Shown in pieces: positions 4,896 through 30,494 of a stretch of DNA of 64,000 nucleotides. The stretch lies in the NCBI GenBank assembly GCA_965222155.1, contig CBDCTH010000004.1, positions 320,001 to 384,000 on the forward strand, read 5' to 3'. This DNA comes from Gammaproteobacteria bacterium (lineage in GTDB: Bacteria > Pseudomonadota > Gammaproteobacteria > Eutrophobiales > Eutrophobiaceae). Made by a program: the position numbers and the translations under genes. Under the pieces are notes generated by a model, which saw only the letters and a list, made by a program, of their open reading frames with translations, did no database searches and was not told where the DNA came from. Every line of letters starts with the position of its first letter. Within the stretch, counting starts at the first letter, position 1.

Positions 4896-5011
4896 AATTT
4901 GGGACACCCATAAATTAGTAACCCAATTTGGGACACCCATAAATTAGTAACCCAATTTGGGACACCCATAAATCTGAAGGACCTAGATTTAATTTAGGAC
5001 ATCCATAAATC
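4896..5011. repeat. 29-bp tandem repeat (~2.7 copies plus one degenerate) carrying the GGGACACCCATAAAT motif
   Basis: AATTTGGGACACCCATAAATTAGTAACCC at 4896 and 4925, partial at 4954; same core as the 59834-60434 array. Confidence 0.85.
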
Positions 5012-5075
5012 TCGATTGGATTCCCGCTCCTCCTCATCTCGCGTGGAATTACTGTTATAATTCAAAAGTTAATAA

Positions 5076-5152
5076 GCGCCTGTAGCTCAGTTGGATAGAG
5101 TGCTGCCCTCCGAAGGCAGAAGTCACAGGTTCGAATCCTGTCAGGCGCGCCA
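5076..5152 (+). tRNA. tRNA-Arg (CCG)
   Basis: GCGCCTG acceptor stem, TAGCTCAGTTGGATAGAG D arm, CTGCC-CTCCGAA-GGCAG anticodon arm, GGTTCGAATCC T loop, 3' CCA. Confidence 0.97.
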
Positions 5153-5285
5153 TTTTTACAAGGGGCCGTAGCGAGGACATCGTTTACAGTTTATACCGGG
5201 GACATAGGGTGCTTTGCTGCAGGTTGATTTGGAATTGTTATGCTAAAATGAGACAGGTTTTTTTCTGAAATACAGGAATATTCAT

Positions 5286-5507
5286 ATGCAAATACAATTT
5301 GCGACACGCATCGAGAGCAAAATCAAACGAGCGGTAGAGAAGGTATGTGAGTCGCGGGGGCTGAAGATAAACCGATTTATCGAAGATGCACTTATCGATA
5401 AGCTGGAGGAACTGGAGGATATTGAGGATCTGAAAAGAATCCGGCGCGAGCCAAGCAAACCATTTGAAAAAGTTTTAAAGGACTTAAAACTCAGTGGCGA
5501 ACTATAA
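5286..5507 (+). CDS. Putative antitoxin (RHH-like) of a type II TA pair
   Basis: 73 aa, acidic C-terminus, overlaps the downstream RelE-like gene. Confidence 0.7.
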   Translation: MQIQFATRIESKIKRAVEKVCESRGLKINRFIEDALIDKLEELEDIEDLKRIRREPSKPFEKVLKDLKLSGEL

Positions 5508-5754
5508 GATTGAAATATCAGCAACTGCAGAGAAACAGATTCGGAAGTTAAAAAAACAGGATCAACTCCGCGTTCTACGTACCATTCGAAACCTCGCACA
5601 GACACCTTACCCTGAAGGTTGCCGCAAATTACACGGATATCAAAATGTGTTTCGTCTCAGGGAAGGAAGTTACCGTATCATCTATGGTGTAGAAACAAAC
5701 CGGCTTTTGGTCATTATACTTAAGGTTGGACATAGGAAAGATGTGTACAGATAA
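5494..5754 (+). CDS. RelE/ParE-family toxin
   Basis: YKIEISATAEKQIRKL...GCRKLHG...FRLREGSYRIIY...KVGHRKDVYR. Confidence 0.88.
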   Translation: MANYKIEISATAEKQIRKLKKQDQLRVLRTIRNLAQTPYPEGCRKLHGYQNVFRLREGSYRIIYGVETNRLLVIILKVGHRKDVYR

Positions 5755-5903
5755 AAGATTTAGTGAAGGAAAGATTATTGTGAAACCCATAATCCAGAGT
5801 GCGGAGACGATATAATTTGAAAGAACTGGTCTCCAAGATACCGGAAAGATACCAGGTTAAGGAAACAGACTGGGGACCGCCGGTTGGCAAGGAAGTATGG
5901 TAG

Positions 5904-6689
5904 ATGTTGACTTTCCCGAATATAGACCCCGTTGCCGTAGACCTGGGTTTCCTGCAGATCCGCTGGTACGGGATCAGCTATATCGCAGGCATCCTGGGGG
6001 CCTGGGCGCTGTTGCATTACCGGGCGAAGTCGGGGCGCTTCGGCTGGACAACCGAACAGGTTGCAGACCTCATTTTTTACGGGATCCTGGGAGTCATCCT
6101 GGGCGGCCGGCTGGGTTCGGTGCTGTTTTACAACCTGCCCTACTACCTGGATCACCCGCTCGACGTAATCAAGGTCTGGCAGGGCGGCATGTCGTTCCAC
6201 GGCGGGCTGCTCGGGGTCATCATCGCCGTCTGGCTCTATGGCCGCAAGATCAATAAGGCATTCTTCGAGGCCACCGATTTCCTGGCGCCCGTGGTACCCG
6301 TTGGTCTGGTTACCGGCCGCATCGGCAATTTTATCAATGCGGAACTGTGGGGCAAACCGGCAGACCTGCCTTGGGCAATGGTATTCCCCAATGCCGGCGC
6401 ACTGCCGAGACACCCGTCCCAGTTATATGAGGCATTCCTGGAGGGGCTGTGCCTGTTCATTATCCTCTGGTGGTTCTCCACCCGCCCCCGCCCTCTGATG
6501 GCCGTCTCCGCGCTGTTCCTGCTGTTCTACGGCCTGTTCCGCTTTGCCGTGGAATTCATGCGTGAGCCGGACGCCCATCTCGGCTACCTCGGTTTCGGCT
6601 GGCTGACCATGGGGCAGGTTTTATCGTTGCCTATGATACTGACAGGTATAGTATTATGCGGCATAGCGTATGGCAGGTTCAGAACATGA
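5904..6689 (+). CDS. lgt: Prolipoprotein diacylglyceryl transferase
   Basis: [39 protein letters not shown]; stop overlaps the thyA start (ATGA). Confidence 0.97.
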
Positions 6690-7207
6690 AACAATACCTG
6701 GACCTGTTACGCCACGTGCGCAATGAAGGCGCACCGAAATCCGACCGTACCGGCACCGGCACCCTCAGCGTTTTCGGCTACCAGATGCGCTTCGACCTGG
6801 GCCGGAATTTCCCGGCGCTGACCACCAAGAAACTGCATTTCAAATCCATCATCCATGAGTTGCTATGGTTTCTGCGAGGGGAATCGAACATCCGTTACCT
6901 GCGCGACAACGGCGTCACCATCTGGGATGAGTGGGCTGATGAAAACGGCGAACTGGGGCCGGTCTACGGCGTACAATGGCGCTCCTGGCCCACGGCCGAC
7001 GGCGCAGCCATAGACCAGATTGCCGACGTGGTGGAACAGCTCAAGGCCAACCCCGACTCGCGGCGCCTGATCGTCAGCGCCTGGAACCCGGGAGAGATAG
7101 ACAAAATGGCCCTTGCGCCCTGTCATGCCTTCTTCCAGTTCTACGTGAATGACGGCGCTCTGTCCTGCCAGATGTACCAGCGCAGCGCAGACGTTTTCCT
7201 GGGGGTC
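6686..7207 (+). pseudogene. thyA: Host thymidylate synthase, 5' part (codons 1-174), interrupted by the integrative element
   Basis: MKQYLDLL...DRTGTGT...GPVYGVQWR...MALAPCH...[11 protein letters not shown], then an abrupt switch to AT-rich non-ThyA sequence. Confidence 0.95.
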
Positions 7208-7317
7208 TCCCTTTTTAGTAACTATATGATCGCTTCGATAACTCGTTTTGTTAACTATTACTTATTGAAAACACTAAGATTTTTTACAAAGCATTTTGTG
7301 CTACTTAATTTGTATCA

Positions 7318-7379
7318 CTTCGCGCAATAAAAAGACGCGCTTTCAACACGAAATTCCCGACTTTGATTTGGGGAAAACA
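7318..7379 (+). repeat. 62-bp left-end segment, copy 1 (identical to 12534-12595)
   Basis: CTTCGCGCAATAAAAAGACGCGCTTTCAACACGAAATTCCCGACTTTGATTTGGGGAAAACA. Confidence 0.92.
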
Positions 7380-7389
7380 TGTAGGTGAA

Positions 7390-7528
7390 CAAATAGGTTT
7401 GTAACTAAGTGAGCTTGTAACCAGCACTCTGCTGTTTCCTACGCGCGCTTTTCAAGAATTAAGTTTGTAACCAATTCATCTTTGTGCGTTTCTAGCGACG
7501 AAATAATAACCAAATAAGTTTGTAACTA
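7390..7528 (+). repeat. Iteron-like direct repeats (TTGTAAC core x4)
   Basis: CAAATA(G/A)GTTTGTAACTA at 7390 and 7511; GCTTGTAACC at 7413; AAGTTTGTAACC at 7461. Confidence 0.55.
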
Positions 7529-7570
7529 GAGAACGACTTCAATAACGCTCAGGCGATTGCTGAAACCGTC

Positions 7571-7728
7571 GGGCAGCATGCCTTGTCTTTGAACATCGTC
7601 GCCTGCTGGAACCCATTTGTAAAGTGCCATCGGCCGAGTTTGAAAATATGTACTACGATAAGATTGACATTTACTGCAAATCTGAATGACTCAAACTAAC
7701 GGGCCTCCGGAATTCCCGGGGCGGTTCA
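7571..7728 (+). mobile_element. IS3-family remnant (right end of an internally deleted element)
   Basis: Ends CCGGGGCGGTTCA; homologous to the 3' part of 28489-28757. Confidence 0.75.
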
Positions 7729-8588
7729 CCGATCTCGTCAGGATTCAGGTCCGGCAGTAGACACCGATCCGTTTGCCTGTTGTCTGGAAGCCTGGGTAAC
7801 CAACACGCGAGGCGTGTCCAGGCATGCCGGGCCCAGGAGGAGAGCGCCAACGCATCCTCGGGCTTTAGAGCCTCGCCTATTGCCACCTCCAGCTCGTACC
7901 AGGACAGGCCAGTCCGTTCGTCCAGTGAGGGGGACCCACTAAATCAATCCACCCGTTAAGTGAATTTCTGGCAAGTGTAACCCCTGAGACGCCATCACGA
8001 AACGAGACGTCAACCGCGTATGCCGAGTTTTTATCCAGCAGACGGCAAACGTGGCTGCAGGTTCGAATACACTGATAATCGGCCGTGGCGGTGGCAAGCC
8101 TCTGAGAAGACTGACGGAAAAAGAGGAAGAGGAAAGCTGGATAAGGTAAGTGCCGTCATCTCCGGCCGGCGCCGTTCCAGTGCCGACGCCGGCTTCGTTT
8201 TTCCTTGCCAAACTCGATTTTTCCTAATCCTTATTTTTTCCGGAGTTCTAGTCTCTACTAGTCTCCACATACTTGACCGCTTCCAGCCAATCATCGGCCG
8301 TGATTCACTGTTTATCGCCTTTTGTCTTTGCAGGCTTATCTGCTGTTGCATTGTTTTCGACCAGCGCTTGCGTCGTCACTGGTTATTCTGCCGGTTCATC
8401 GTCTCTAGTAACGTCCGGTCTTGATTACGCTTCCCAGATAAAACCTTTATCCCTGAGCTCGGGGCGCAATAAGGCAAACTCTTTCCGGATGCACTTGAGC
8501 ATGTCAGCAATGTCCAACCCGTTATTTCGTCCCGTGTTTCAAATACTCCGTCCTTGGATGTTTCACTTCTTCATTGTCCGGGTTAATG

Positions 8589-9524
8589 CTATTGGGGCAA
8601 CAATACAAGACGATCATGTAGCAATTTAGAATTCAGCCCAGGCATGACAGCCTGAACTTGCTTAAATGCACGCCCAAATGCCTGCTGGAATTTATGACGG
8701 TCTTTTTTGTTATTCATATAGCCGAAGCCGAACTGTAACTGGAGATGCTCCCAAGTGATATATGTCTCTTTTTGAAGATAACTCAAGCGGTGGTTTATCC
8801 AGAGGTAGATATCAATAGCCAGGGAGGACGTTGATAACGCGCGCAAAGCACATATATCAATGGGAACATGATGCTGTATCACCTCGTTGTATAGAGTATC
8901 TTCGATTGTAATTGTGGATATATCTTTGTCGTCATCGTCAAATTCAAACAAATCGCGAAAATCACCAAAAACCGGGTCATCAATAGGAATAGGTATGACA
9001 TTTGATGTACTTGTGTCACCAACCACGCCTTTTTGCAGCAACCTAATCCTTGAACATACCTTGCTAAATTGCGTCATACGTTTATCAAATGGGCCGTGAT
9101 AACACATTCCGATGGTCACCCGGAATAAACCCACAGCCTGTCTCCTTACCGGTATATACGTATCCCATTGTTCTGTGGCCGGCAATACGCCAAGCGTGCA
9201 AAGAAAATCAGACAGGCCATCCCCCAATTCAAGTTTACGATTACGGGTCATGGCTGCTTCATGTATCATCCATGCGAACACAAGACGAGGAATCGGCCCA
9301 TAAGGCGGGCTGCAACCGGGTGTATCAAGAATGGAAATCTGGTATTTTCCAAATTTCCGCTGATATCTGATATCTTCTTGTTTGCATGCAGGCAGCGCCG
9401 CTAGGACCAGTGCGCGGATTGCAAATGAATTTCCGGCATCTTCCCTGGTTTCAAAATCAAGAATCCGCTCACCCCCTCGTATGAGTTTCATTTGCTCCAG
9501 TGGCCGGGGTTGAATTGTCATCAT
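8589..9524 (-). CDS. Plasmid-type replication initiator, RepA (RepA_C-like)
   Basis: PYGPIPRLVFAW..EA...LELGDGLSDFL..LG and VPIDICALRAL..SSLAIDIYLWINHRL match the RepA_C pattern. Confidence 0.7.
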   Translation of the reverse strand: MMTIQPRPLEQMKLIRGGERILDFETREDAGNSFAIRALVLAALPACKQEDIRYQRKFGKYQISILDTPGCSPPYGPIPRLVFAWMIHEAAMTRNRKLELGDGLSDFLCTLGVLPATEQWDTYIPVRRQAVGLFRVTIGMCYHGPFDKRMTQFSKVCSRIRLLQKGVVGDTSTSNVIPIPIDDPVFGDFRDLFEFDDDDKDISTITIEDTLYNEVIQHHVPIDICALRALSTSSLAIDIYLWINHRLSYLQKETYITWEHLQLQFGFGYMNNKKDRHKFQQAFGRAFKQVQAVMPGLNSKLLHDRLVLLPQ

Positions 9525-10138
9525 AGTTATCCGATGAATGTCACATTACTATTGCGTATCGAATGACTGGGCCCATTCGTCTTTTTGACAACAAATTCCT
9601 AAAGACGTGAAGAAATTTTCCAGGAAACTACCCGTAAAAACGATTTTGCCTTTTCTCATTGTTCATCCCCTTCACATGTTTTTCCGGCAAAAAGGTGCCG
9701 GGCCATGTGACCATCACACAAAGAAAAGGTGAAGTCCTGCCTATTCGCCAGGACTCAGGGAGCTACCCCAAGTTAGGTTACAGGCTATTTTATTTAGCAG
9801 GGAACCCGACAGGGCAGGTTCTCTGTTGATGGCCACTGGTCGAAGTATAACAAAATGTCTGACTATAGTTTTGACATTTTGACATTGCAGATTAAAGAGT
9901 CAGTGATAAACGGTATCAGTAAAAAAATAGTTGTCATACTGGAATTCGTAATCGGATTACTACACTTCAAGACAGACTTATGCAGAAAAGACGAGATCCG
10001 ATATCTGTTTTCCAGCTCCTGCCTTACAAAATGTCCGGGAACGTTTCGACGAAAAGAAGGGGACAGACAGCTAAATTCCCGTTTTTTTCCAGAAATCTCT
10101 AAGTTAGATTGGCCCAGTTTTGTAGGACAAGGTTATTT

Positions 10139-11668
10139 TCAGTAATCCAATTCATCCATAAATTTTACAATTTTACTTTCCAGCACAGTTAGTTGAGCCA
10201 TTAAATGTTTACGTTCTGCAAGTTCATCCATCAAGTCAATTTGTTCCTTCTCCTTATAAGAATCGACATAAAGCGGAATATTTAAGTTATATTCATTCTC
10301 ATCGAGCTCTTCAAGGCTGGCTAGGTAAGCATATTTATGCGTGCTTACGCGGTCCCGGTAAGTAGCCACGATTTTAGCTATGTTCTCATCAGTTAGCTGG
10401 TTTTGGTATTTACCTCCTTTGAATTCATGGCTAGCGTCAATGAATAGCACAGAATTATCCGTTTTCGCCATTTTAAGAACCAGGATAACGACTGGAATGC
10501 TCGTGCCATAGAAAAGCTTTGCCGGTAGGCCTATTACCGCATCTAGTAGATTATCCTCGATCAGTTTCTTCCTAATCCTGCCTTCACGTAAGCCCCTGAA
10601 AAGAACACCGTGTGGCACCACTACACCAATACGTCCGGTTTTGGGCTTCAATGTTGCTAACATATGTAAGATAAATGCATAAATGCCCTTGGACTTGGGG
10701 GGAAGGCCTCGATGGAAGCGGCCATAATTGTCATCTTTGGCCTCATCGTATCCCCATTTGTTTAGCGAAAACGGCAGGCTGGCGGCCACGACATCAAACA
10801 ATAATAAGCCACCATTTTTATCCAACAGTTTGGGATTTTGTATTGTATCGCCCCATTCGATAGTATGGTTATTCTCCCCGTGCAGGAGCAAATTCATCTT
10901 GGCTATCGACCAGATGCCACCCAAAACTTCCTGACCATACAAAGCATATTCTTTACTTTTGTGGTTGGTGATTACTTTTTTTCCAAACTCTAGCAACAGC
11001 GAACCGGAGCCGCAGGCAGGGTCACAAATTCTGTCACCTGGTTGTGGGTCCAACAGTTCAGCGAGCAAATTACTGACCTCTGGTGGCGTATAAAAATCAC
11101 CGTCCTTCCGTTCACCACTGGCGGCAAAATTATTCATCAAAAATTCAAAAGCATTGCCGATCACATCCGGGGCGCCAACGCGGCTTGGTTTTAAATTTAG
11201 GTCTGGTTTGGCAAAGTCCTCCAGTAAGTGGCATAGGATGGCATTTTTCTGATTTTCTTCGCCAAGTTCATCGGAATTAAACGATAGGTATTGGAACACG
11301 CTATTACCGTCACCTTTGAGTTGAGTGCTGTTAACTTCTTCAAGGACGTGAAGGGCCTGGTTTATGCGCTCTCCATTACCCGGTTCGTGACGGTGCTGGC
11401 ACAGGTTGTAGAAGTTGGCGTCGAAGGGTATGGAAAAGCTTACATTTCTTATCTCGTCTTCGATTAATTCCTGTTTGCTGTCGTATTCTGCTTCGTAATC
11501 TCCATAACGATCCCGCCAGACATCAGAGAGGTACTTGAGAAACAATATAGAAAGGATAAGACCTTTGTACGTGTCGACACTAACGATTCCACGAAAGGAA
11601 TTGCAAGCAGCCCATAGAGCACTGTTAATGCTGTCTTGATAATTTAATCCTTTATCTAATCCATTCAT
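10139..11668 (-). CDS. hsdM: Type I R-M methyltransferase subunit with altered catalytic motif
   Basis: LWAACNSFRG, FLKYLSD, GDFYTP, DPACGSGSLL, VVVPHGVLFRG; SLPF at the NPPF position. Confidence 0.9.
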   Translation of the reverse strand: MNGLDKGLNYQDSINSALWAACNSFRGIVSVDTYKGLILSILFLKYLSDVWRDRYGDYEAEYDSKQELIEDEIRNVSFSIPFDANFYNLCQHRHEPGNGERINQALHVLEEVNSTQLKGDGNSVFQYLSFNSDELGEENQKNAILCHLLEDFAKPDLNLKPSRVGAPDVIGNAFEFLMNNFAASGERKDGDFYTPPEVSNLLAELLDPQPGDRICDPACGSGSLLLEFGKKVITNHKSKEYALYGQEVLGGIWSIAKMNLLLHGENNHTIEWGDTIQNPKLLDKNGGLLLFDVVAASLPFSLNKWGYDEAKDDNYGRFHRGLPPKSKGIYAFILHMLATLKPKTGRIGVVVPHGVLFRGLREGRIRKKLIEDNLLDAVIGLPAKLFYGTSIPVVILVLKMAKTDNSVLFIDASHEFKGGKYQNQLTDENIAKIVATYRDRVSTHKYAYLASLEELDENEYNLNIPLYVDSYKEKEQIDLMDELAERKHLMAQLTVLESKIVKFMDELDY

Positions 11669-11718
11669 GTTTCACTGTTAATTTGCAATTTACAATGTAG
11701 TGCTTCGCTGGTTTATTC

Positions 11719-12327
11719 TTATTGTTGTTTTAGTGTTGCCAATAAGTCGCTGGCAATGGTGTTCATCAACCGTTCACTATTACGTAACATTTGCTCAACA
11801 ATCTTCTTTTCCTGCCTCAGGGTGTTGGCCAGGTCAATGATGGCGCGCTGCTTAGCGAGCTTAGGCAACGCTACGGTTACATCTTCCAGCACACTGCGAC
11901 GTATGCTTTTTGTCAAGGTGCCTTCGGCATTTTGTTCTAAGTAGCTTTGGCAGGGGCGTTGATTTAAGAACCACGCCAAGTACCCGGGGATAACGTCATT
12001 GGACCTCAGTCTGATTACAAAGAAGTGTGGTGCGGCAACGGCCTGGATCCTTGCTTGAAACATCTCCTCATGTATGAGCACAGCATAGTAATGATTTCCA
12101 CGCGCTGCTACCAATATATCGCCAGGTTGCAGGTAGTTAGGTTCACGCTTGCCGGTCAACTCTGTATGAATGCAACTGGCCCAGTGAATTTCGTTCTGAG
12201 CAGTAATATCTTTCATCTGAACCGCGACAACGCCTGAGCCAGCCACTTCAGGAATTTTTCCCCGAAACGGATAACCAGCATTGATATCCGCAATTTGTTT
12301 CAGTTTTATCACACTTACTTGTTTCAT
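11719..12327 (-). CDS. Half-size type I R-M specificity-subunit-like protein
   Basis: KLKQIADINAGYPFRG, LQPGDIL, YLAWFLN, VALPKLAKQRAI; directly upstream of hsdM. Confidence 0.78.
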   Translation of the reverse strand: MKQVSVIKLKQIADINAGYPFRGKIPEVAGSGVVAVQMKDITAQNEIHWASCIHTELTGKREPNYLQPGDILVAARGNHYYAVLIHEEMFQARIQAVAAPHFFVIRLRSNDVIPGYLAWFLNQRPCQSYLEQNAEGTLTKSIRRSVLEDVTVALPKLAKQRAIIDLANTLRQEKKIVEQMLRNSERLMNTIASDLLATLKQQ

Positions 12328-12533
12328 AGATAATGATGCAATAAATATATGTTGACTCGAGACAAATGTCAATTTATGATTGTTTCATCGACGATGATGC
12401 ATTGTGCGAGATATGTATGGAGATTAGTATTCTTCAAGAGTTTCACCTAGAACAATGAAAGTAACTGTTGAAATCACCCGCCGGTTGGATTGTTACGAAC
12501 CGACTACTGAACAGGCAGAAGGTCACATAACAG

Positions 12534-12595
12534 CTTCGCGCAATAAAAAGACGCGCTTTCAACACGAAATTCCCGACTTTGATTTGGGGAAAACA
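12534..12595 (+). repeat. 62-bp left-end segment, copy 2
   Basis: Perfect direct repeat of 7318-7379. Confidence 0.92.
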
Positions 12596-12911
12596 ATCTA
12601 GTGAACATCTGATTAAGTCCCCATAATATGAGATCATGGACCAAGGTAAACCAACAAGGTGAATTCATGCAGCAGGAATCTTTTCAGAATTGGCCCAAGT
12701 CAGTGACGCTCATCGTCTGGATGGGTCGCCTGGAGTATTGGCTGACTAATATCAGTATCACCGTAATCTCGTGTCGACCTTTTTTCAGGTAGTGGTGGGT
12801 TTGTTAAAGGTGCTTAACAAAGATACAAAATAGTATTAAATGAGACTACATAATCCGGCATTGCCAAAATTATGACACATTTTAAGAGCGGGACTTAACT
12901 GGAGGTTCCCT

Positions 12912-13808
12912 ATGATCCACCCTGAATATCAGTATCTAAACCTGCTAAAACTTCTCGTTGAAAACGGTGATGAAAGAGAGGACCGAACTGGGGTGGGAAC
13001 CCGTGCAGTTTTTGGTTACGAAATGCGCTTCAACCTGGAGGATGGATTTCCTATATTCACAACAAAAAGAGTATTTTGGAAAACGGCATTTAAAGAGATG
13101 CTTTGGATGCTTTCAGGTGGGACAAACATTCGCGAGCTGTTGGAGCAGAATGTGAGAATTTGGACTGCGTGGCCACTGGAAAAATATCGGAAGACCACTG
13201 GCGAAAATATATCTCAGGATGAATTTGAAAAACGAATCCTGGATGATGAGATGTTCGCTAAAAAGTGGGGAGACCTGGGACCGGTTTATGGCAAGCAGTG
13301 GCGTCGATGGGTCACACGTGATGGGAGAGAAATTGATCAAGTTCAACTCGTCATTGACAAGATCAGAAACGAACCATACGGACGACGGATTCTCTGGGAT
13401 GGATGGAACGTCGGAGAAATTGGGGAGATGGCGCTTCCACCATGCCATAAACACTATCAATTTTTTGTAAAGCCTAAAGACAGCAAACTTTGTGGAGCTT
13501 TAATCCAGAGGAGCGCGGACTCTTTTTTAGGTTTAGCATGGAACGTTGCCAACTTAGCACTCGTGACGACACTGTTGGCAGAACAGACCAATTTACAGCC
13601 AGGGGAGATCGTCTGGTACGGCCTCGATGTCCACCTATACCTGAACCACATCTCCCAGGCTAAAGAACAAGTGTTGCGAGAACCCCGTCCATTCCCGACA
13701 CTCAAAATCAAACGTCGTGCGACAACCCTGTTTGACTACCGAATAGAGGATTTTGATTTGGAAAACTACGATCCACATCCCCATATATCAGCACCAATGG
13801 CAGTTTAA
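12912..13808 (+). CDS. thyA: Element-encoded complete thymidylate synthase (long type with small-domain insert)
   Basis: DRTGVGT, GDLGPVYGKQWR, MALPPCH (catalytic Cys), QRSADSFLGLAWN, DVHLYLNH, C-terminal PMAV; GGAGG RBS. Confidence 0.95.
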   Translation: MIHPEYQYLNLLKLLVENGDEREDRTGVGTRAVFGYEMRFNLEDGFPIFTTKRVFWKTAFKEMLWMLSGGTNIRELLEQNVRIWTAWPLEKYRKTTGENISQDEFEKRILDDEMFAKKWGDLGPVYGKQWRRWVTRDGREIDQVQLVIDKIRNEPYGRRILWDGWNVGEIGEMALPPCHKHYQFFVKPKDSKLCGALIQRSADSFLGLAWNVANLALVTTLLAEQTNLQPGEIVWYGLDVHLYLNHISQAKEQVLREPRPFPTLKIKRRATTLFDYRIEDFDLENYDPHPHISAPMAV

Positions 13809-13816
13809 TAAAATCA

Positions 13817-16558
13817 GTGACCACCAAACAAAACATAATAGGCGGTGAATGCCCAGAAAACACACCAGGTTGCATATGCAGAGAGATACGGCAACTCTAT
13901 GAAAATCGCGAGTTAAGACTCTATCGTGGGAAAATTTCTCAGAGGGATCTTCAACGCATTCTAGGGTCACCAGTCCACTCACTTTATTCATCTTCGAAAA
14001 ATAGGTTATATGAACAGGCTCGTCGATGTATTGCAAATTTCGATAAGTACTTATACAGCTGCGGTCATGGTACAGTCTGGGAAGAAAAAATTCCCCAAAT
14101 CGAGGCCTATTTAGAAATACAAAAAAAGGCCAAGACTCTACCGGTTAATCCAAGTGGGGATCTCGGCAGAACTACGGTATTAAAGCAATTTGGTATGGGC
14201 AAAAACGATACAAGCACCATACAAAATCGCGCCCCCCGTCTTAAGGCACTATTGGATAGATACGACATTACAGCAAAAGATCCCGCGTATTCACAGTATA
14301 AATATACAAAGTTCAATAAGGAATTAAAGCTACTACTCGAAGATCCAGACCTGAGTCTAACTCATGATCGAGTTGTAAATCTCAAATGGTTAAGCGAGAG
14401 GCTAGGAATTCCGGTACATGCGTTACAGAAAACACCTCAGTTAAAAGCCTTAGTTGCGGACAAGCAACGTGAAATTGATCGCCTTAGCCGTAAAGGGGAG
14501 ACACAACAATACTTCAGAATAAACGGAGTTTACCACCTAAACGTTGGTGCTAAGCCTTACTCAGATAAGCACAAACGAATATTTAACTTCAGTCGTCTAA
14601 TTGACTGCTATGGGCTCAATTTCACAGAAAAAGCCGCAACAGTTTTTGTGTCATTGATTTCAAATCTTGTATCGCCAGAGGCACAATACCGTCGAATTAT
14701 TCACTTTCTATTGTGGCTTGCAAAAGAGTCCCATCTGCATGGTGAAATAGTAGAGCGTCTCAAGAATAATAAACAGATCGATGGAACGATGTTTGAGCGG
14801 GCAATATTTTATTATAAGGAAGCAATTCTGTTTGATTTAAGTAAAAATGACATAAGCTGGAAATCTTCAAAATTCGAACTAGTCGTACTTCAGAAATTTG
14901 CAGATGCTGGAGTATTCCCGCAGATTAGAATTCCTGGAAAAAAAAGGGGGAATGTTCCTCGTGCCATCCGACCTAGGTCGTCTTTGGCCGAGGCTAAAAC
15001 AAAGACTGATGGTCTGAAGAATATTGCCCAGCTAATGGACACCACTAGCGCCCATTTTAATGTCAAGTTTGATATGGGCGAGGATACTATCGATTTTGCA
15101 GAAAATCTGGCAAGAGAGATAAATCAACGGGAGGACCTTCCAAAGGACCTGTCGCAAGCGGTTTGTGTCTTATGTGATGAGAGATTAACAGCTCTGCGAG
15201 TGTCCGCTTCAAAAATATTTGAAAGTTGGCGAGAACAGTATGAGTTAGGCCGGCAGTTGATTAGCCGTTCTCATGGAGAAGGTCATGCTATCTATCGTAA
15301 GCTACAAAATGCGGGAACAAACAAAAGTTCTTATAAATGGAAAAACACCGTCGCGGTTCTGTTTCCAAAACAAAATATTGAGATCGCACTGTGTAACCTG
15401 CTATCACTTGTCGATGAGTGTTTCAACGCAATATGTCCGTTAGTGACTACACATGAGTGGGGTCATTCTTGGACAAAGTTATACAATAAGATCGGCGGCA
15501 AGAATAGGGTGCAGTCGTTCTTATCTCCCACTAGTCTAGTGGCCTCTGCTGTAATTTGTCTCTATTTGTGTGAGACGGGAGCAAATGAGGCTGTTGCGAT
15601 ATCAATGGAGTCTGGTGCTATAAGACCATCGAATGTACCCAATCATCTGACTATAGTTGGAAACAAGGCCCGATCAAAAGGTAAGGCAATTTACGAAGAC
15701 CTTCCGCTTAAAAGTACGATTGATGGTTGTACCAGTGCCGCTGAGGCAATGTCATATTATCAGAGTGCGACTGATCGTTATCGCACAACAGATACTGAGC
15801 AGACTAAGCGACTATTTCTCTACATCGATCGTAGTAAAGTCAGACATATCACAGAATGGAAGCTACGGGAAGACATTTTGAAGATTTCCACTGACTCAAA
15901 AGAGCTATCAACTCTAAAGATTACTCCTTCCATGATTCGTCCGACCGTGCTACTCATGGAACATCTGAAAAATCCAATGAATCTGGGCGTGACACAGCTT
16001 CGTGCGAGGCATGAAAAAGACGGAACGACGCTCGGGTACGTTGGCAAGTTGCCATTAAGGCTAATTCTCACTGAAAAAATTCGCGAGTTCCAAGACACGA
16101 TACAGGTTATTGCAGTTAGCGGTCTTAAAGATGCACGGAATAAGCTAAGTATAGATCAAAACGACTGGGATGCTGCGAGTGATCGTGTCCAGCGCACCGG
16201 ATTGGGAACATTCTGTTTTGACCCAGAGGCAGGCGCTCAGCCTGACTACCCAAAGGGGAATAAATGCCAAGCACTTGATCGATGCCTGACCTACCCCTTA
16301 AAAATCGTCGTCGCGGAACCACAATCCATAGCAGATATGATTATTTGGAAAAAGGCGTTTGAATCTGCTGAAGGCAGATTTCTTGATGAGCGATATGAAC
16401 GTTGGGAGACAGTCTGGATGCCATGGCAAGTATTTATCCAGGTGGTTTTGGACGAGAAGATGACACGAGGGGAGCTTGCGAATATAAAAATGGAAGCGCA
16501 GAAAATTGCAAATTTGCGCATGCAATCGAAAGACTTCAAGTTACCCATGCCATGGTAA
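13817..16558 (+). CDS. Large protein with a degenerate C-terminal tyrosine-recombinase-like region
   Basis: ETGANEA / PSMIR / RARH / TLGY positions align loosely with the R..HxxR..H..Y layout; Cys-rich tail; starts 8 nt after the element thyA. Confidence 0.55.
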   Translation: MTTKQNIIGGECPENTPGCICREIRQLYENRELRLYRGKISQRDLQRILGSPVHSLYSSSKNRLYEQARRCIANFDKYLYSCGHGTVWEEKIPQIEAYLEIQKKAKTLPVNPSGDLGRTTVLKQFGMGKNDTSTIQNRAPRLKALLDRYDITAKDPAYSQYKYTKFNKELKLLLEDPDLSLTHDRVVNLKWLSERLGIPVHALQKTPQLKALVADKQREIDRLSRKGETQQYFRINGVYHLNVGAKPYSDKHKRIFNFSRLIDCYGLNFTEKAATVFVSLISNLVSPEAQYRRIIHFLLWLAKESHLHGEIVERLKNNKQIDGTMFERAIFYYKEAILFDLSKNDISWKSSKFELVVLQKFADAGVFPQIRIPGKKRGNVPRAIRPRSSLAEAKTKTDGLKNIAQLMDTTSAHFNVKFDMGEDTIDFAENLAREINQREDLPKDLSQAVCVLCDERLTALRVSASKIFESWREQYELGRQLISRSHGEGHAIYRKLQNAGTNKSSYKWKNTVAVLFPKQNIEIALCNLLSLVDECFNAICPLVTTHEWGHSWTKLYNKIGGKNRVQSFLSPTSLVASAVICLYLCETGANEAVAISMESGAIRPSNVPNHLTIVGNKARSKGKAIYEDLPLKSTIDGCTSAAEAMSYYQSATDRYRTTDTEQTKRLFLYIDRSKVRHITEWKLREDILKISTDSKELSTLKITPSMIRPTVLLMEHLKNPMNLGVTQLRARHEKDGTTLGYVGKLPLRLILTEKIREFQDTIQVIAVSGLKDARNKLSIDQNDWDAASDRVQRTGLGTFCFDPEAGAQPDYPKGNKCQALDRCLTYPLKIVVAEPQSIADMIIWKKAFESAEGRFLDERYERWETVWMPWQVFIQVVLDEKMTRGELANIKMEAQKIANLRMQSKDFKLPMPW

Positions 16559-18630
16559 TGAATGATCATTTAATACAAACACAGTTTACTGATAGTGAGA
16601 ATTTGATATCAGGGATTTTCGCTAACGCAAATACAGATAGATGGTTGGCATCCGTTTCGAGTGACCTTAGCCAATGGCAGATCTTCGATCTGGCGGGAAA
16701 CACCAGGCGAGAGTCACTGATAGACCTAAAATTTAAACTGGCGGACGGTAGTATGCTAACGGACGCACAGAATCGTGATTTGTTTATTATTGCAGTCGAA
16801 TATCTGGTGCTAATACGAATGTATTCGCCTGAAATGACCGCGAGTATACAAAGGAAACGGGTTAGGGATTTGCTGACATTCTACTTTTGGTTAAGTCAGC
16901 GTAGAGTCCGTTCGCTCCAGGCGGTCTCTCGTGACCACATTGATCTCTACACAGAAGCAAGTGTTTATGGCCAGGAATGGGCGACAGAAGCTCCTCAACG
17001 GCTTGTAAAGTATCTGCAGCACTGTCGTGAAAATGACGAAGAATTACCGAAGGAAAAACGCTGTCTAACTCGAGTATCGCGAAGCCGTCTTTATCGGGCG
17101 GCGGGGATCAGTTGGCCTACTGCTGAGCACTTGCACATCTGTTCACATATTATGAAGAGAGTAGAGAAAATAGGCCTGAATGAAGAACTGAGACTGCCAA
17201 TTCGCGATATATTGAGACTGTGTGGATATACGTTACAACCAAATACACAGGTACGCTTGAACGCAACGCTGCTACCTTTAGAAGAACTGTGGGAATGGAG
17301 ACACCAATTTTCCAAACCTACCCTAACAATTTGTCCCTATCCACATGGTGCATCGATGAGAGCGAAGCAGCTTGGGCGCGCTTCCGAACGACATAAGACT
17401 ATCCCGCCCCAGATTGCAATGCGGTATCTGAACGAAGCACTGAAATGGGTCATCGAATATTCTCCAGTCATTTTGCGCGGCATTGCCCAAAACTGGGACT
17501 GTCTTTATTTTACAAATTCCTTGTCGGCAATTGGGCTCAACATCACGGTATGTGATCATGAAAAACCTGCTATTTCTACTCGTAAGCGGAGCGTTAATCG
17601 CTATGGGCTAATTCGACTTCTTGGAGTTGCCTGCTTTATCGTTATTGCAAGCTTATCGGCGCGTAGACGTGGAGAGATATTGGAGCTTGGTGCTGGCCGT
17701 TGCAAGCAGGATTCAAGAGGTAAATATTGGTTAAAGCCCTATATTGAAAAGACATATCAACAATATGATGAGATCCCTGTTCCGAATTGCGTTTATGAAA
17801 GCATTCACCTTATGGAAACGCTCAGCGAAACTGCGCGTCAGGAGACAAATAGAGATTATATCTGGAAATTTCGACAGCCCTGGGATGGAAAATGTCGCGA
17901 TTTTCGCCCACAGAATTATCTCAATCAGTTCCGTCAATTATGTTCGTCCCTCTCAGGAACAGAATGGAGATTTTCATCACATCAGTTTCGTAGATTTTTT
18001 GCGATTGCTTACTTTAATTTTTTTGAAAAAGGGGATGTTGTAGCGCTGTCGTATCATCTTCGTCATCGTGAACTGGAAGATACCAAACATTATGTGACCG
18101 ACACTGAATTCGGAAAGCTATTGAAAGATGTATTCGGCGAATGGCAAGCATATTTTCTCAGGGATGTAGTACTTGGAACACGAAGCGTAGGCGGGAAAGC
18201 CGGACAGTGGTTAAACCAAAAGATTCATAAACTGCGACAACGTTTCCGAAAAGATGTCGAGGTTGTTAGCGTTGATCGTGTTGTCGATAGAATTCTGAGG
18301 TTAGTACGCAAGCTAGGAGTTCCACTTAAACTCCACATATGGGGAACTGTATGTGCATGTCCGCGGAAAACCTCATTTTCTAAGTATGCAAGTTGTAAAG
18401 GTTCAGCCGCCACTGGACCAAACTTTGCCAATGCGACGGAAGAGCTATGTGGCGTATGTCCTTTTGCGATTCAAACTTCTACCTACAAATCAAATGCTAA
18501 ATCGGCGTTAACGAACAGACGAAATCTGGCAAACGGATTAACCCAGGGCTCTTTGATACAGGAATTCGCAGCAACGAGTTCCGAGAGGTTGGAAAGTATC
18601 ATTGAAAAAGGAGAACCCTTTCCGCTTTAG
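16558..18630 (+). CDS. Large tyrosine recombinase/integrase
   Basis: SARRRGEI, SSHQFRRFF, HLRH, TKHY catalytic set; Cys-rich tail; TAATG coupling to the upstream gene. Confidence 0.85.
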   Translation: MNDHLIQTQFTDSENLISGIFANANTDRWLASVSSDLSQWQIFDLAGNTRRESLIDLKFKLADGSMLTDAQNRDLFIIAVEYLVLIRMYSPEMTASIQRKRVRDLLTFYFWLSQRRVRSLQAVSRDHIDLYTEASVYGQEWATEAPQRLVKYLQHCRENDEELPKEKRCLTRVSRSRLYRAAGISWPTAEHLHICSHIMKRVEKIGLNEELRLPIRDILRLCGYTLQPNTQVRLNATLLPLEELWEWRHQFSKPTLTICPYPHGASMRAKQLGRASERHKTIPPQIAMRYLNEALKWVIEYSPVILRGIAQNWDCLYFTNSLSAIGLNITVCDHEKPAISTRKRSVNRYGLIRLLGVACFIVIASLSARRRGEILELGAGRCKQDSRGKYWLKPYIEKTYQQYDEIPVPNCVYESIHLMETLSETARQETNRDYIWKFRQPWDGKCRDFRPQNYLNQFRQLCSSLSGTEWRFSSHQFRRFFAIAYFNFFEKGDVVALSYHLRHRELEDTKHYVTDTEFGKLLKDVFGEWQAYFLRDVVLGTRSVGGKAGQWLNQKIHKLRQRFRKDVEVVSVDRVVDRILRLVRKLGVPLKLHIWGTVCACPRKTSFSKYASCKGSAATGPNFANATEELCGVCPFAIQTSTYKSNAKSALTNRRNLANGLTQGSLIQEFAATSSERLESIIEKGEPFPL

Positions 18631-18640
18631 TCTTAGGTGA

Positions 18641-19171
18641 ATGATGAATAATACCAAGCGAGCAGGAGCACTGAGGCAGCAAATTCAAGTCCGTTTAGAA
18701 ATATTGGGGCGTTGGCAGGATAATGGTATCCCGGAAGGTTACAAGGTACCCGACTCCCTAAACAAGGTACGTACCTGGGAGGATGATTCACTTGGAATCC
18801 AGCGGATCGGCAGCCCATCGTCTTTTACCACCAGTCATTCTAGGTATGGTGGACAGGTAAAAAAGATTGCCAAGATCCTTGAGGAGTTAAATCGATCGAA
18901 GAGGAAAAAGCCTCGAAAAAACTCCAGTACTCAGCTACTTCACCAAGAAAGGGAGAAACTAGAGCACTACGAAAAAGCTCTCGTAGAAGCGGCTAATCAA
19001 TACGCAGTAATCACTGTTAATCTGAAAGAAGCCCAGCGTGATCTCCGTATTGACAGACAGAGTCTTGAATCGGCAAATAATGAGATTAAGCAGCTCAAGT
19101 CTCAATTGGCAAGGACGGAAAGTAGCAAACGGGTTGTCAGGTTTCCAGGAAGCGATGTTACATCAAATTAG
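18641..19171 (+). CDS. Small coiled-coil accessory protein of the recombinase module
   Basis: 176 aa, basic, heptad-rich C-terminal half; lies between two integrases. Confidence 0.6.
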   Translation: MMNNTKRAGALRQQIQVRLEILGRWQDNGIPEGYKVPDSLNKVRTWEDDSLGIQRIGSPSSFTTSHSRYGGQVKKIAKILEELNRSKRKKPRKNSSTQLLHQEREKLEHYEKALVEAANQYAVITVNLKEAQRDLRIDRQSLESANNEIKQLKSQLARTESSKRVVRFPGSDVTSN

Positions 19172-19213
19172 AACCAGGTGGGGCAACCATACCATATATA
19201 ACTTTTCTCGTTA

Positions 19214-20491
19214 TTGAGTAGCGCAGTGGGATCAATAGTTCCTTTTTTTATTAAGACAGATTCGCGTTGTGAGATAAATGGTATCTCGTACGCCGGTATC
19301 CCGATTTTCTTTGATGACAACGGTGTTATTTGGCCGTTATCAGATTATATGATTTCGCTTGTTTACCAGTGTCGAAAGCCTGCGAGCACCGTAGAAACCT
19401 ATGCGTACTATCTCCAAAAGTTTTTAAAGCACATCAACGAACAGGAAATAATTTGGTCTGATGTAACGGACGCTGATCTAATTAGATGGCGTGATCAGAT
19501 GATAGATATTGAATGTCTAAGGCCAGCGACAGCGTTTGCATGCTTGTTGAAAGTATTTCATTTTTATCAATGGGCTGAGGAATCTGGCATTTTGAAGTAT
19601 TCCGTCGCGACATATGATGAATGTAACAAGGCATCTTGCTCTTGCCATAACCGAATCTATCAAATTTCCGCTGTTAGGAGAGGTAGAAGCAACTACTATA
19701 CTTGGCCGTACCTCCCAAGGATAAATCAACAGGCAAATAGGCATACTCCGGTTAACGAAGAAATTGAAAAGCTACATGTAGCAGCCTTCAATTCATCGAC
19801 CGGGCAAAGGGATTCGCTATTACTCAGCTTATATGAAGACCTTTGCCTGCGTCGTATGGAAGCACTAAGCATAACAATAAAGGATATTCCGCCATGGGAT
19901 GAGATAGAGGAATATATTGAATCTGATAAAGTCTTTACACTTACGATTTTAGGCAAGAGAAACAGAGTTCGACATGTACCTGTGCTTCCTGAACTAATGG
20001 TTAGAGCACGTGAATATATTGAAGGGCAGCGCAGGGTAGTAATTAAGAGGGCAAAAAGTAGAAACTCAACTTTTAAGCCCCCTGACGAGTTATTTTTAGG
20101 TGCGACTACGGCTTTGCCTCTGACGAAAGGGTATGTTTCCAGACATGTATCAGGGTTGATGCAGTCCACCATAGATATCAAGCAAGCCTCAGGACACCGT
20201 CTTCGGGCATCCGGACTTACAGCATTGGCTGAAGCCTATGATGGTTTTGATGAAACAGGTAGACCATTTTCCGCGGAACAAGTTCTCTGGAAAGTGGCAG
20301 ATCATGCGGGTCACGCTAATCCATCATCTCTGCAACCATATCTCAACAGCGCACGAAGTCCGAAGCATGGGTCGAATGTAGAGAAAGGAATACGAGACGA
20401 TACGCGTTTACACCTGCTTAAACGAGAAAATGCGGAATTGAAAGCCAAGCTAAAAAAGCGTGGTAATTCTGATAACAAAACGGGATTATAA
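19214..20491 (+). CDS. Tyrosine recombinase/integrase
   Basis: TVETYAYYLQKF core-binding helix, LRRMEAL, GKR, GHRLR, HAGH, LQPY. Confidence 0.88.
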   Translation: MSSAVGSIVPFFIKTDSRCEINGISYAGIPIFFDDNGVIWPLSDYMISLVYQCRKPASTVETYAYYLQKFLKHINEQEIIWSDVTDADLIRWRDQMIDIECLRPATAFACLLKVFHFYQWAEESGILKYSVATYDECNKASCSCHNRIYQISAVRRGRSNYYTWPYLPRINQQANRHTPVNEEIEKLHVAAFNSSTGQRDSLLLSLYEDLCLRRMEALSITIKDIPPWDEIEEYIESDKVFTLTILGKRNRVRHVPVLPELMVRAREYIEGQRRVVIKRAKSRNSTFKPPDELFLGATTALPLTKGYVSRHVSGLMQSTIDIKQASGHRLRASGLTALAEAYDGFDETGRPFSAEQVLWKVADHAGHANPSSLQPYLNSARSPKHGSNVEKGIRDDTRLHLLKRENAELKAKLKKRGNSDNKTGL

Positions 20492-23400: not shown

Positions 23401-24540
23401 TATGTAAACATATGAATGAGGTCCTGGTCGGAGACCCATTATGGCTTAACAACCCGTTTGATTTTCTTGGGCGCATCAGCCGTCTTGACCTATTAGAAAT
23501 ATTGGCAGCCGAGGCCGATAGTCGATTAGAAGAGATGATTACCGAGGTTGCGTGTAGTCGACTACGTACAAACAGTAATTTTCGTGACAGCATCCGCGAA
23601 GATGCACGTCGAATCCTGATTCTCATCGGTGGAGAAGGCATCACAACCATGATTAATCGGGAATTAGATTCAGGACATTTTTGGGTGCGCCATGGTGGCT
23701 TGAAATGGGCAATGGTGCGGAACGATAACGGTATTGTGGAAAAACTCTGTGCAATTGCTTCACGTCAAGCTTCAAGAAATGAGGATGGAAGTATTGAGTC
23801 CAGTTTTCTGCAAGAGTTTGTACAGGCTACGAAAGCACTTGCAGCTTTGGGGTCTGATACAGCTTTAGTTGAAACTCTGAGAAATAGTGGCTTAGTGGAA
23901 GTGTCTATCGAGCTTACCCAGCTTCGTGCGCACCGTGGTTTGATGCCAAAAGCTATCACCGCTCAAACGCTACAAGTGTTGCAAAGTGAGGATTCATCTG
24001 AAGAATTGTTACTGACTGAGATTATGATTGCATGGCTCAGTCAAGACGCTGAGTTAATTTCACAGATGCGTTCGATATTAGAGCGCGCAGACATAGAAGG
24101 ACGAATTGCCACTTATGCCTGCATCGCACTTCAGGCACTTGGTGATAGCTCAGATGAGTTCGCACGGCTAGCTTATCGCCTTCTCTATACTGAATCTAAC
24201 ACGTCTAATGGGTTACAAGCACTGATCTGGTTGGGTAATCGAGGAGCAAAATTGCTCGCAAATTGGCTTCAGGATGCAAGTGCGCGGAAGAATGAGAGAC
24301 ATGATACATCCGCAATCTACACTTTATATGATTATCCCTCAACCAGGGACATAAGTATTAATGCTGCTCTCACAAAATGCCTGAGTAGAAGCTCGTATTT
24401 TGATAGTCCATTTGACATTGCTGCTGAAGCAGAAAACTGCGTATTTCACTGAATCCTGCCACCCGTTTCACGTGAAGGCTGCCACCCGGAACGCAGCAAA
24501 GCTGCCACCCCCAGGCGCGTGATGACGTGGGTGTTGGTCA

Positions 24541-25299
24541 TTATGACTCTGTTGGGGTCATCGTCGTCAATGTTTTTTTCTGTTTTCGCATGGATTCACC
24601 CTTGAGTTGTATTTTGTAAGCATTGTGCACCAGGCGGTCAAGGATGGCATCGGCGAGGGTGGGGTCGCCGATGCTGTGATGCCATTTTTCGGCCGGTAAT
24701 TGACTGGTAGCGAGGGTGGAGCGTGCGCCGTGGCGGTCTTCCAGGATTTCCAGCAGGTCACGGCGCTGCTCTGCGTTCAATTTGACCAGGCCCCAGTCAT
24801 CGAGGATGAGGGCCTGGGTTTTTGCCAGGGTGGTGAGGAGCTTGGGATAGCGTCCATCGCCCTTGGCGATGGACAGGTCCTGGAGGAGTCTGGGCAGGCG
24901 CAGGTAGAGGGCGGTGTAGCCGTGCCGGCAGGCGTTGTGTGCCAGGGCACAGGCGAGCCAGGTTTTGCCGACGCCGGTGGGGCCGGTGATGAGGATATTG
25001 AGGTGTTCGCGGACCCACTGGCAGGTGGCCAGTGATTGCATCAGGGATTTATCCAGTCCGCGCGGGTGGCGATAGTCGATATCCTCCAGGGTGGCATTGT
25101 GTTTGAGGCGGGCGCATCGCAGCCGGTTGGACAGGCGTCGGTTGTCCCGTTCGGTTATCTCCCGGTCGACGAGCAGGCCGAGGCGTTCCTCGAAGCTGAG
25201 GGTATCGATATCGGGCACGGACATCTGCTCGGTGAGGGCGGCAGCCATACCGGTGCATTTCAAGGTCTGGAGTTTGTCCAGGGTGGGATGTATCAACAT
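24541..25299 (-). CDS. istB: IS21 helper ATPase
   Basis: GPTGVGKT, LILDDWG, ADAILDRLVHNA, GESMRK. Confidence 0.95.
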   Translation of the reverse strand: MLIHPTLDKLQTLKCTGMAAALTEQMSVPDIDTLSFEERLGLLVDREITERDNRRLSNRLRCARLKHNATLEDIDYRHPRGLDKSLMQSLATCQWVREHLNILITGPTGVGKTWLACALAHNACRHGYTALYLRLPRLLQDLSIAKGDGRYPKLLTTLAKTQALILDDWGLVKLNAEQRRDLLEILEDRHGARSTLATSQLPAEKWHHSIGDPTLADAILDRLVHNAYKIQLKGESMRKQKKTLTTMTPTES

Positions 25300-25318
25300 A
25301 GCAGTCTCCTGTCGTGGG

Positions 25319-28757: not shown

Positions 28758-28830
28758 GTGTAAAACAAGATATTTGACGTAATGAATTTCACCTCAATCA
28801 AATTGGATAGAATGTAGTGAAAAGATTAAA

Positions 28831-30401: not shown

Positions 30402-30494
30402 AATACGGTTTCATGTCAATATATATTTATATTTTATAATTATTTTTGAGTCAATTATAATTTGAAGAATACATAAATCACTACACAAATCTAT

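Follow-up and report, generated by a model that had tools for sequence, protein, structure and literature searches.

The window analysed here is a stretch of 64,000 nucleotides from a bacterium of the Gammaproteobacteria (assembly GCA_965222155.1, contig CBDCTH010000004.1, positions 320,001 to 384,000), and it holds an island of about 39 kb that splits the host thyA gene and carries a thyA of its own together with a core of several recombinase genes. The left arm of this island is interrupted at 7380–12533 by a block of 5154 bp, which is bracketed by two perfect copies of a 62-bp sequence (the 62-mer). We find it probable that the block goes back to a Tn7-like transposon, of which a stump is left that is now joined to a repA of plasmid type and to an orphan hsdS-hsdM pair, and that it acquired its long target duplication by route (a) or route (b) below, which are here taken jointly.

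Results

The 62-mer and the empty site

The two copies of the 62-mer, at 7318–7379 and 12534–12595 on the forward strand, are identical in 62 of 62 positions by direct comparison (self-BLAST E 1e-27), and the first of them starts at the fifth base of the box ATCACTTCG (7314–7322), as the initial annotation had it when it described a perfect duplication beginning inside this box. Copy 1 ends with the five bases AAACA (7375–7379), while copy 2 runs on into the inner part of the arm, as its counterpart does in the congeneric genome G051. Outside the 62 bp, the left flanks of the two copies show no similarity (p 0.39–0.87, 5000 shuffles), and the right flanks show a marginal similarity (p 0.02–0.10, 5000 shuffles), which comes from a common GTGAACA. 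When the whole assembly of 4,553,329 bases is searched, these two copies at the edges of the block are the only ones found. The repeat is real and sharply bounded, and from its copy number it follows that it is not dispersed in the genome, which had been named beforehand as the observation that would speak against a connection with the element.

A match to the 62-mer is found in one of five genomes tested, namely G051, which carries an island of the same kind, and in none of G050, G046, G057 and G036, which hold relatives of the left end of the block or of its hsdSM part. By this distribution, the 62-mer is DNA of the island arm. It contains a weak, terminator-like hairpin of six pairs. Two further candidates were discarded: a dif-like or second recombinase box at the right edge of the 62-mer, where the resemblance is weak and was judged by eye only, and the occurrence of a 16-mer of the 62-mer at 58 loci in viral contigs, which share no further DNA or protein similarity and are taken as chance matches.

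The state of the arm before the block arrived is illustrated by G051, where the sister island in thyA lacks the block and has the 62-mer only once (a query of 80 nt gives exactly one copy). Positions 5905–7379 of the window correspond to 22400–23871, and positions 12523–20471 to 23801–31739, of the reverse-complemented G051 stretch, and the two matches overlap in the single 62-mer, which is identical to ours in 55 of 62 positions as counted by eye and which there continues directly into ATCGAGTG..., the counterpart of 12596 onward. A related element with one 62-bp copy and without the DNA at 7380–12595 was what the initial annotation had advised looking for, and G051, in which 7380–12533 is absent, is such a case. 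The distance between the cut host thyA and the thyA of the island tells the same: according to tblastn coordinates it is about 270, 300, 366, 366, 869, 368 and 204 bp in seven metagenome loci and about 464 bp in G051, and it is 5704 bp here, or 488 bp without the 5216-bp unit that consists of the block and one 62-mer (7318–12533). The block is thus foreign DNA that was inserted in the left arm of the island.

Arms of this island family take up cargo elsewhere too. In a distant relative (L014:8196–9065) the left arm holds a gene for a serine recombinase of the resolvase type, and no long duplication is found around this extra gene in the L014 arm.

The left junction

The first base of the block, 7380, is also the first base after copy 1 of the 62-mer, and the DNA that starts there (7380–7532, forward strand) is by homology the left end of a Tn7-like transposon, with the terminus TGTAGGTGAAC... 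and, at 7392–7526, three good copies and one weak copy of AAGTTTGTAAC. The DNA of the block was searched in 126 genomes of the family, of which 18 matched some part of it. Nucleotides 1–349 of the block match G050 with 87% identity, and nucleotides 1–153 or 1–150 match G057, G046 and a second contig of G051 (G051:C6) with 83–84% identity. In all four genomes the homology begins at the counterpart of 7380, with TGTAGG(T/C)GAACAAATA..., and the DNA outside it is different in each, so that here the tip of the transposon abuts the last base of the 62-mer.

In Tn7, the TnsB sites of the left end stand apart from one another, and insertion takes place downstream of glmS and gives duplications of 5 bp. 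The element on G051:C6 is about 23.5 kb long, has defence-type cargo and encodes TnsE_C, TnsD, TnsC/TniB, Mu-transposase-C and TnsA domains; at the far end it borders on glmS, and its target duplication is the 5-bp sequence CAAGT. The element in G050 lacks tns genes, adjoins glmS and has the duplication TCCTA, while G046 and G057 have solo left ends. Since the copies of AAGTTTGTAAC are homologous to the left ends of such elements, they are the spaced binding repeats of a Tn7-like left end and not iterons for RepA; the "iteron-like repeats" of the initial annotation are accordingly withdrawn.

Among the elements of the genus at glmS, the one on G051:C6 (L101 and L102) is a complete one (TnsA, TnsB-like, TnsC, TnsD and TnsE), and its cargo is of the NACHT/ATPase type. 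The cargo of the G050 element (L098) comprises AAA_13, HD-CE, STAND and HD domains; the solo left ends in G046 and G057 are loci L100 and L099, respectively.

The Tn7-like end at 7380 is the only one in its own genome, and no second or matching end is found in the window or elsewhere in that genome. The block holds no tns genes, and tblastn with the Tns proteins of G051 gives no match in the own genome; searches with PF18623 and PF08722 also give no match, with controls that were silent too. The block is therefore like Tn7-like transposons in its TGT terminus, in its spaced direct repeats of the transposase-binding type and in a left end that is 83–87% identical to the ends of tnsABCDE elements standing at glmS with 5-bp duplications, and it is unlike them in lacking tns genes, a right end and the 5-bp duplication and in lying at a site other than glmS. 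It is a stump and not a transposon.

The right edge

At the right edge of the block (12373–12533), DNA homologous to the hsdS flank of G036 extends as far as 12524, and the last nine bases are ACATAACAG. Neither a left end in inverted orientation (alignment score 16, where shuffled sequences average 16.3) nor a cluster of end repeats is found at this edge, and the notion of the block as a transposon with inverted termini was dropped on account of this score. The last bases of the block, 12521–12533, read GGTCACA|TAACA|G, in which an ACA tip is succeeded by a sequence that agrees with AAACA, the five bases before the left end, in four of five positions. The block is flanked by AAACA on its left and by GCTTC on its right, and the duplication around it is the one of 62 bp, not one of 5 bp.

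Read and assembly support

Logan contigs, which are built from 31-mers, of four runs (X9, X11, X12 and X1) were compared with positions 5000–21000 of the window. X9, a second data set of the sample group, covers this region best, with a share of words of 1.00; uncovered parts in X11, X12 and X1 are given no weight, and sponge-metagenome runs with a share under 0.2 were left out. In X9, a contig of 5214 nt covers 7350–12563 with depth 112.7 and a contig of 7474 nt covers 12566–20039 with depth 94.4, and both stop 30 nt inside a repeat copy, as a 31-mer graph predicts. All four junctions exist in reads, and their phasing is not fixed by 31-mer contigs; no contig bridging the whole block is among those listed, which at this word length carries no weight in either direction. 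Since the k-mer depth of the block is about the same as that of the island core, the block is not a multicopy plasmid. The contig with the host lgt-thyA genes has a depth of 207.8 in X9, which reflects further strains in the sample. Run X11 holds pieces of the same sequence without mismatches, including 7350–7699. In X1, two contigs begin to match at 7380 with other DNA before this point, and solo or other Tn7-like left ends explain them.

Origin of the duplication

To see how a transposon stump may come to lie between two copies of 62 bp, consider a Tn7-like element that transposed into the arm between ...GGGGAAAACA and ATCTAG..., i.e., at AAACA|ATCTAG. The anatomy of the junctions bears the signature of this transposition, because AAACA precedes the tip and because copy 2 ends with AAACA and is followed by ATCTAG, as in the uninterrupted arm of G051. 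After normal transposition one would expect a right end with AAACA behind it, but the block stops at 12533 and all 62 bases come next. In a second step, the right part of the element, with the tns genes and the right end, would then have been lost, and the broken inner end at 12533 would have been sealed to the arm at a position 62 bp leftward of where the element had inserted, which leaves the 62 bp on both sides. If the rejoining took place at this position, the 62-mers are a long target duplication and not attachment sites.

Two routes could lead to such a joint, and they need the fewest steps of those considered. In route (a) the insertion would have been one-ended or otherwise aberrant, so that synthesis from the free 3' end in the nicked target copied 62 nt a second time before this end became joined to the broken inner end of the transposon. 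In route (b) a later illegitimate exchange, or a templated repair, with a transposon-free copy of the arm would have joined 12533 to the position of 7318; the sister chromosome, a second copy of the island or an excised circle could have provided such an arm. A sharper version of route (a), according to which the structure records a one-ended Tn7-like transposition where only the left end was joined and where the 3' end re-copied 62 nt by strand displacement before it was sealed to the broken inner end, is put forward as a conjecture that we ourselves think rather improbable. The insertion may have been tolerated by the island, since the left copy of the 62-mer keeps the island end boxes and the right copy keeps the region upstream of the thyA-recombinase operon.

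Several observations weigh against the derivation from a transposon stump by these routes. True insertions of this transposon family give duplications of 5 bp (in both of the two complete elements), and an additional or abnormal step must therefore be postulated to arrive at 62 bp. RepA is intact (311 aa), which makes a replicating circle possible. Contigs of 31-mers cannot phase a repeat of 62 bp, and the integrated state is given by the assembly only. Furthermore, the edge lies within 9 bp of the end of the hsdS-flank homology to G036, and this hints that the hsdSM piece already had its boundary at 12524–12533 and was not broken there at random. Finally, the sequence ...ACA|TAACA|G at the edge resembles a transposon tip with a 4/5 copy of AAACA, which the proposed steps do not explain.

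A segment that has an intact Rep gene and stands between perfect direct repeats is what a single crossover classically yields, and one may accordingly imagine (route (c)) a re-entry of the Campbell type, where 7318–12533 looped out as a 5216-bp repA circle, persisted or was transferred, and re-entered by its 62-bp fragment of the arm through a crossover with an intact arm, either homologous or assisted by a recombinase; re-excision would be possible in the same way. The junctions in a de Bruijn graph are the same for an integrated form as for a circle plus an empty arm, and the depth of the block is about 1.2 times that of the core. This course is nevertheless unlikely, though we grant it a real chance. 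It takes more steps, i.e., transposition, illegitimate excision, maintenance and a recombination for which just 62 bp are available; what had looked like iterons belongs to the transposon end, and no further array of iterons is seen, so that an origin for RepA is putative; the 62-mer is found in none of the four genomes with relatives of parts of the block; and there is no separate 5-kb contig in the assembly, the smallest contig of which has 11,381 bases, and the block is single-copy. The initial annotation had suggested a satellite or plasmid-like circle of about 5.2 kb that recombined into the left arm. Of this, the foreign DNA in the arm is supported, while a circle with its own attachment site is not supported as stated, given that the 62-mer is arm DNA with no copy in these four genomes, that a Tn7-like end abuts it and that no recombinase is encoded in the block; a circle would be possible as a second step. 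If, on the other hand, the circle was never in the chromosome and a free 5.2-kb plasmid sharing 62 bp with the island was threaded into the chromosomal contig during assembly, then one expects a branching node at the repeat, and the X9 contigs do break 30 nt inside each copy, with a phasing that is not independently confirmed. Against such an artefact, which we regard as very unlikely, are the 622-kb length of the contig in an assembly of 12 contigs, which suggests long reads that span 5 kb, the depth of the block near that of the island, and the piece from the 62-mer into the block (7350–7699) that run X11 holds without mismatch. Even so, the plasmid would carry arm DNA abutting a transposon tip, and the biology would be the same as for re-entry of a circle.

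The locus has a history of accretion, and this has to be considered as well. Its right side has two units with inverted boxes, GGATGTCACTAAA and a remnant of the 3' part of thyA in each: an inner one at 44926–45285 (forward strand), with boxes CGAAGTGAT and GGATGTCACTAAA followed by the thyA remnant, and an outer one at 46285–46644 (forward strand), which is 83.6% identical to it. All five right-end units, two here and three in G051, keep CGAAG(T/C)GAT, then 17 nt, then GGATGTCACTAAA and the 3' part of thyA, and because all five keep these boxes and the thyA part, the locus has accreted units on its right side. It is tempting to connect this accretion with the 62-mers by assuming two tandem islands, the outer one with a transposon in its arm, and a deletion from inside the transposon to box 2 in the arm of the inner island, such that the right end of the outer island survives as the second right-end unit. 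We consider this quite improbable: the right-end units have diverged by 16% while the 62-mers are identical, and a 62-bp run of identity would at this divergence have a chance of about 0.836^62 = 1.5e-5; G051 has three right-end units and one left arm; the block has no remnant of a right end, of thyA or of a recombinase; the doubling is confined to 62 inner bases of the arm and leaves out the terminal 110 bp or so with the end repeat and box 1; and the inner copy starts inside box 2, without a complete island end, so that there is no attP-like join of a right and a left end. For the same reasons, the remnant of a second tandem element, paired with the second right end, which the initial annotation had offered as its alternative, is not supported. 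There is, last, the bare chance that the block is a complete, non-autonomous mini-element of the Tn7-like type (7380–12527, TGT...ACA) with a decayed right end, which entered exactly between the two copies of a tandem 62-bp duplication that was already there and produced the duplication AAACA/TAACA. The sequence ...GGTCACA|TAACA|G at 12521–12533 and a weak GTTCGTAAC 35 nt inside would fit with this. The inverted-repeat similarity is, however, not significant by the scores given above, no cluster of end repeats is present, and one would have to accept a G too many, a duplication whose copies differ by a mismatch, and an insertion that hit precisely the point where the two earlier copies met.

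Discussion

Insertion with long target duplication of restriction-modification (R-M) genes was reportedly described by Nobusato et al. in 2000, and the mechanism of such duplications has been open since then. In the available part of Furuta, Abe and Kobayashi (2010; PMC2853133), inserts of a few kb with R-M genes of every type, or with orphan M genes, are found between duplications of more than 30 bp, whose sequence is present once at the empty site of a related genome and is unique in the genome. The same text gives the mechanism as unknown and suggests a link to double-strand breaks, and it notes that repeats spanning gene ends may leave the target functional and that there are recent cases with perfect repeats. 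As far as that text goes, the class is defined by an insert shorter than 20 kb and "no other mobile elements", and for the first screen R and M genes had to be present together. Judged by this material, insertion with long target duplication is the pattern closest to the block among those described. The likeness lies in a duplication of 62 bp (>30 bp), which is single-copy at the empty site of G051 and unique in its own genome. The insert of 5154 bp, with hsdM and hsdS and without hsdR, would fit only the looser cases with orphan M genes. Unlike the class as outlined in PMC2853133, the block holds a Tn7-like left end, an IS3 remnant and repA, one of its junctions is an exact transposon tip, and its target is the arm of a mobile island and not the end of a chromosomal gene.

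A second parallel is the Dup-IS-Dup arrangement of IS481 in Pseudomonas fluorescens, which in the accessible portion of Ngan et al. (2024; PMC11708052) has the insertion sequence (IS) at the centre of a duplication, without the usual short duplication, and for which insertion in a pre-existing break or a transposase-linked duplication is proposed there. Here as in that account, mobile DNA stands between two copies of the target and the usual short duplication is absent; the duplication in that account is 60 kb with an intact IS, whereas here it is 62 bp with a truncated transposon. The block is also like integrated plasmids and cis-mobilisable elements of the Campbell model in that direct repeats bracket a segment with a rep gene that could loop out, and unlike them in that an integrase and a conserved attachment (att) core are absent, the inner copy lacks a complete island end, and the repeat is target DNA. 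By analogy with these cases, the block would be an insertion scar of a known though poorly understood kind.

What is unusual is that one of the two junctions is a defined substrate of a transposase, which gives a lead on mechanism. If the one-ended transposition described above were true, abortive joining of transposon ends would be one concrete route to the long and variable duplications that flank R-M genes in many bacteria, and it would be a way for islands of the thyA type to gain cargo in their arms with the functions of end and promoter kept. The arms of this little-known family of thyA-replacing islands can in any case accept cargo. For annotation, the correction is that the repeats beside repA are, by their homology, a transposon end and not a plasmid origin, and because of this it would be wrong to take the block for a satellite that replicates itself and has att sites.

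Contents of the block

Between the two 62-mers, the IS3 remnant, repA, hsdM and S-like gene listed in the initial annotation are all recovered, by Pfam matches and, for the IS3 remnant, by its context in G042. The remnant, at 7588–7728 on the forward strand, is the 3'-terminal piece, about 140 nt long, of an element of the IS3 family, as G042 shows, where this sequence comes immediately after an orfA/orfB pair whose products have HTH_Tnp_1 and rve domains. It is dispersed in many genomes of the genus, it is 81% identical to 28614–28757 of the window, and in G050 also it is contiguous with the Tn7-like end. A joint of 20513 to 7686, seen in three runs, places the IS3 end next to the end of the island core in variants and does not concern the block.

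The stretch that follows, 7729–8588, has no family match and is partly of about 60% G+C. Next to it, at 8589–9524 on the reverse strand, repA encodes a full-length plasmid replication initiator of 311 aa (RepA_C, Pfam PF04796). At about 30% identity, 848 plasmid records match RepA; its closest relatives, with 84–95% identity, are on metagenome contigs of 15–47 kb and have a length like its own. No repA is found in any of the 125 other genomes of the order, and no alignment of RepA is obtained in viral contigs.

At 9591–9857 lies a conserved non-coding element of 268 nt, which is 86% identical, with indels of 1–2 nt, to a part of the cargo of the G051 island. It is partly matched in G048 and G037, and the contig depth summed over it is, in three runs, two to three times that of the block. 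A search of 7000–13000 in Rfam gives only a chance-level match (E 0.92) and no family for this element.

On the same strand as repA follow hsdM (10139–11668, reverse strand), for a type I methyltransferase subunit with Pfam matches N6_Mtase and HsdM_N and 244.4 bits for TIGR00497 against a cut-off of 242.75, and hsdS (11719–12372, reverse strand), which is of half size with one target-recognition domain (Pfam Methylase_S). There is no hsdR in the block, and hsdS and hsdM form an orphan pair. In a plasmid collection, the block gives no match in near mode and, in distant mode, matches only by hsdM, at about 69%, and by short pieces.

The host island

The G+C content is about 55–60% in the host lgt-thyA operon and then drops to about 44% in a region that reaches to about 46371. 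The 5' part of the host thyA (6656–7207, forward strand; Pfam Thymidylat_synt, profile positions 1–177 of 266) is, by its translation, cut after ...SADVFLGV at about 7207. The cut is at the same residue in all seven related loci that have a left flank (L006, L008, L011, L014, L015, L016 and L022), where the match ends at query residue 183–184; L011 and L016 are apparently one sequence filed twice. The outer part of the left arm (7208–7317, forward strand), with the terminal TTTAGTAAC, the box ATCGCTTCG (7229–7237) and the first four bases of the box ATCACTTCG, aligns with the arm in G051, and so does the inner part upstream of the island thyA (12596–12911, forward strand).

The thyA-recombinase core that the initial annotation had placed after the second 62-mer is indeed there (12912–20491, forward strand), and it consists of thyA and four genes, all on the forward strand. 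The island thyA (12912–13808) is full-length and divergent. It is followed by genes for a protein of 913 aa (13817–16558), which resembles long tyrosine recombinases by language-model features only, a protein of 742 aa (16402–18630) with a Phage_integrase match in Pfam, a protein of 176 aa (18641–19171) with weak matches of coiled-coil type, and a protein of 425 aa (19214–20491), again with a Phage_integrase match in Pfam. These four may be described as tyrosine-recombinase-type and auxiliary genes. Their order after the island thyA is as in G051 and is kept in 18 metagenome loci. Sequence searches of the Protein Data Bank with the 425-aa and 742-aa proteins and with a profile of the 913-aa protein give no match.

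The 913-aa protein is rare. It occurs in only 14 clusters of a large protein collection, in two of the 126 genomes of the family with its own genome counted and, by alignment, in one of 400 scored genomes of the class, which is its own; a pattern scan of species-representative genomes finds no relatives.

Over the island family as a whole (window 6656–46644, G051 loci L023–L026, and L005–L022), the host thyA is always cut at one codon, after FLGV, and the divergent island thyA has an altered target motif (FLGLAWNVANL). A thyA-targeting island of this type was not found in full-text searches of a limited library, and the conserved family is apparently undescribed. As far as the available descriptions go, the nearest multi-recombinase elements are islands of the GInt, SE and Tn554-like types (PMC5385486, PMC10214605), and the island differs in gene order and gene sizes from ginABCD and intA-tfp-intB-srap as they are described in these sources, the comparison being one of descriptions only. 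The nearest published concept found, in the part of PMC10653934 that was available, is the tmk island of Pseudomonas putida, which has its own dNMP kinase.

One contig in run X1 joins 12596 to 20514 on opposite strands, with 41 nt on the shorter side, and in X1 and X9 many contigs switch partner at 20513/20514. The thyA-recombinase cassette may thus occur in other contexts or in another orientation, where the join of 12596 to 20514 is that of a single contig.

The cargo of the island includes, in patches of high G+C, an istA/istB pair of the IS21 type (24541–26860) and a DDE_Tnp_1/DUF772 transposase gene (28854–30299). Directly to the right of the outer end of the island lies a pair of genes for a helix-turn-helix (HipB-like) protein and HipA (46782–48357). 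The host DNA of the window further contains a perfect tandem array of about 19 units of 27 bp (59921–60434) and an array of 47-bp units with 88–95% identity (1821–2474).

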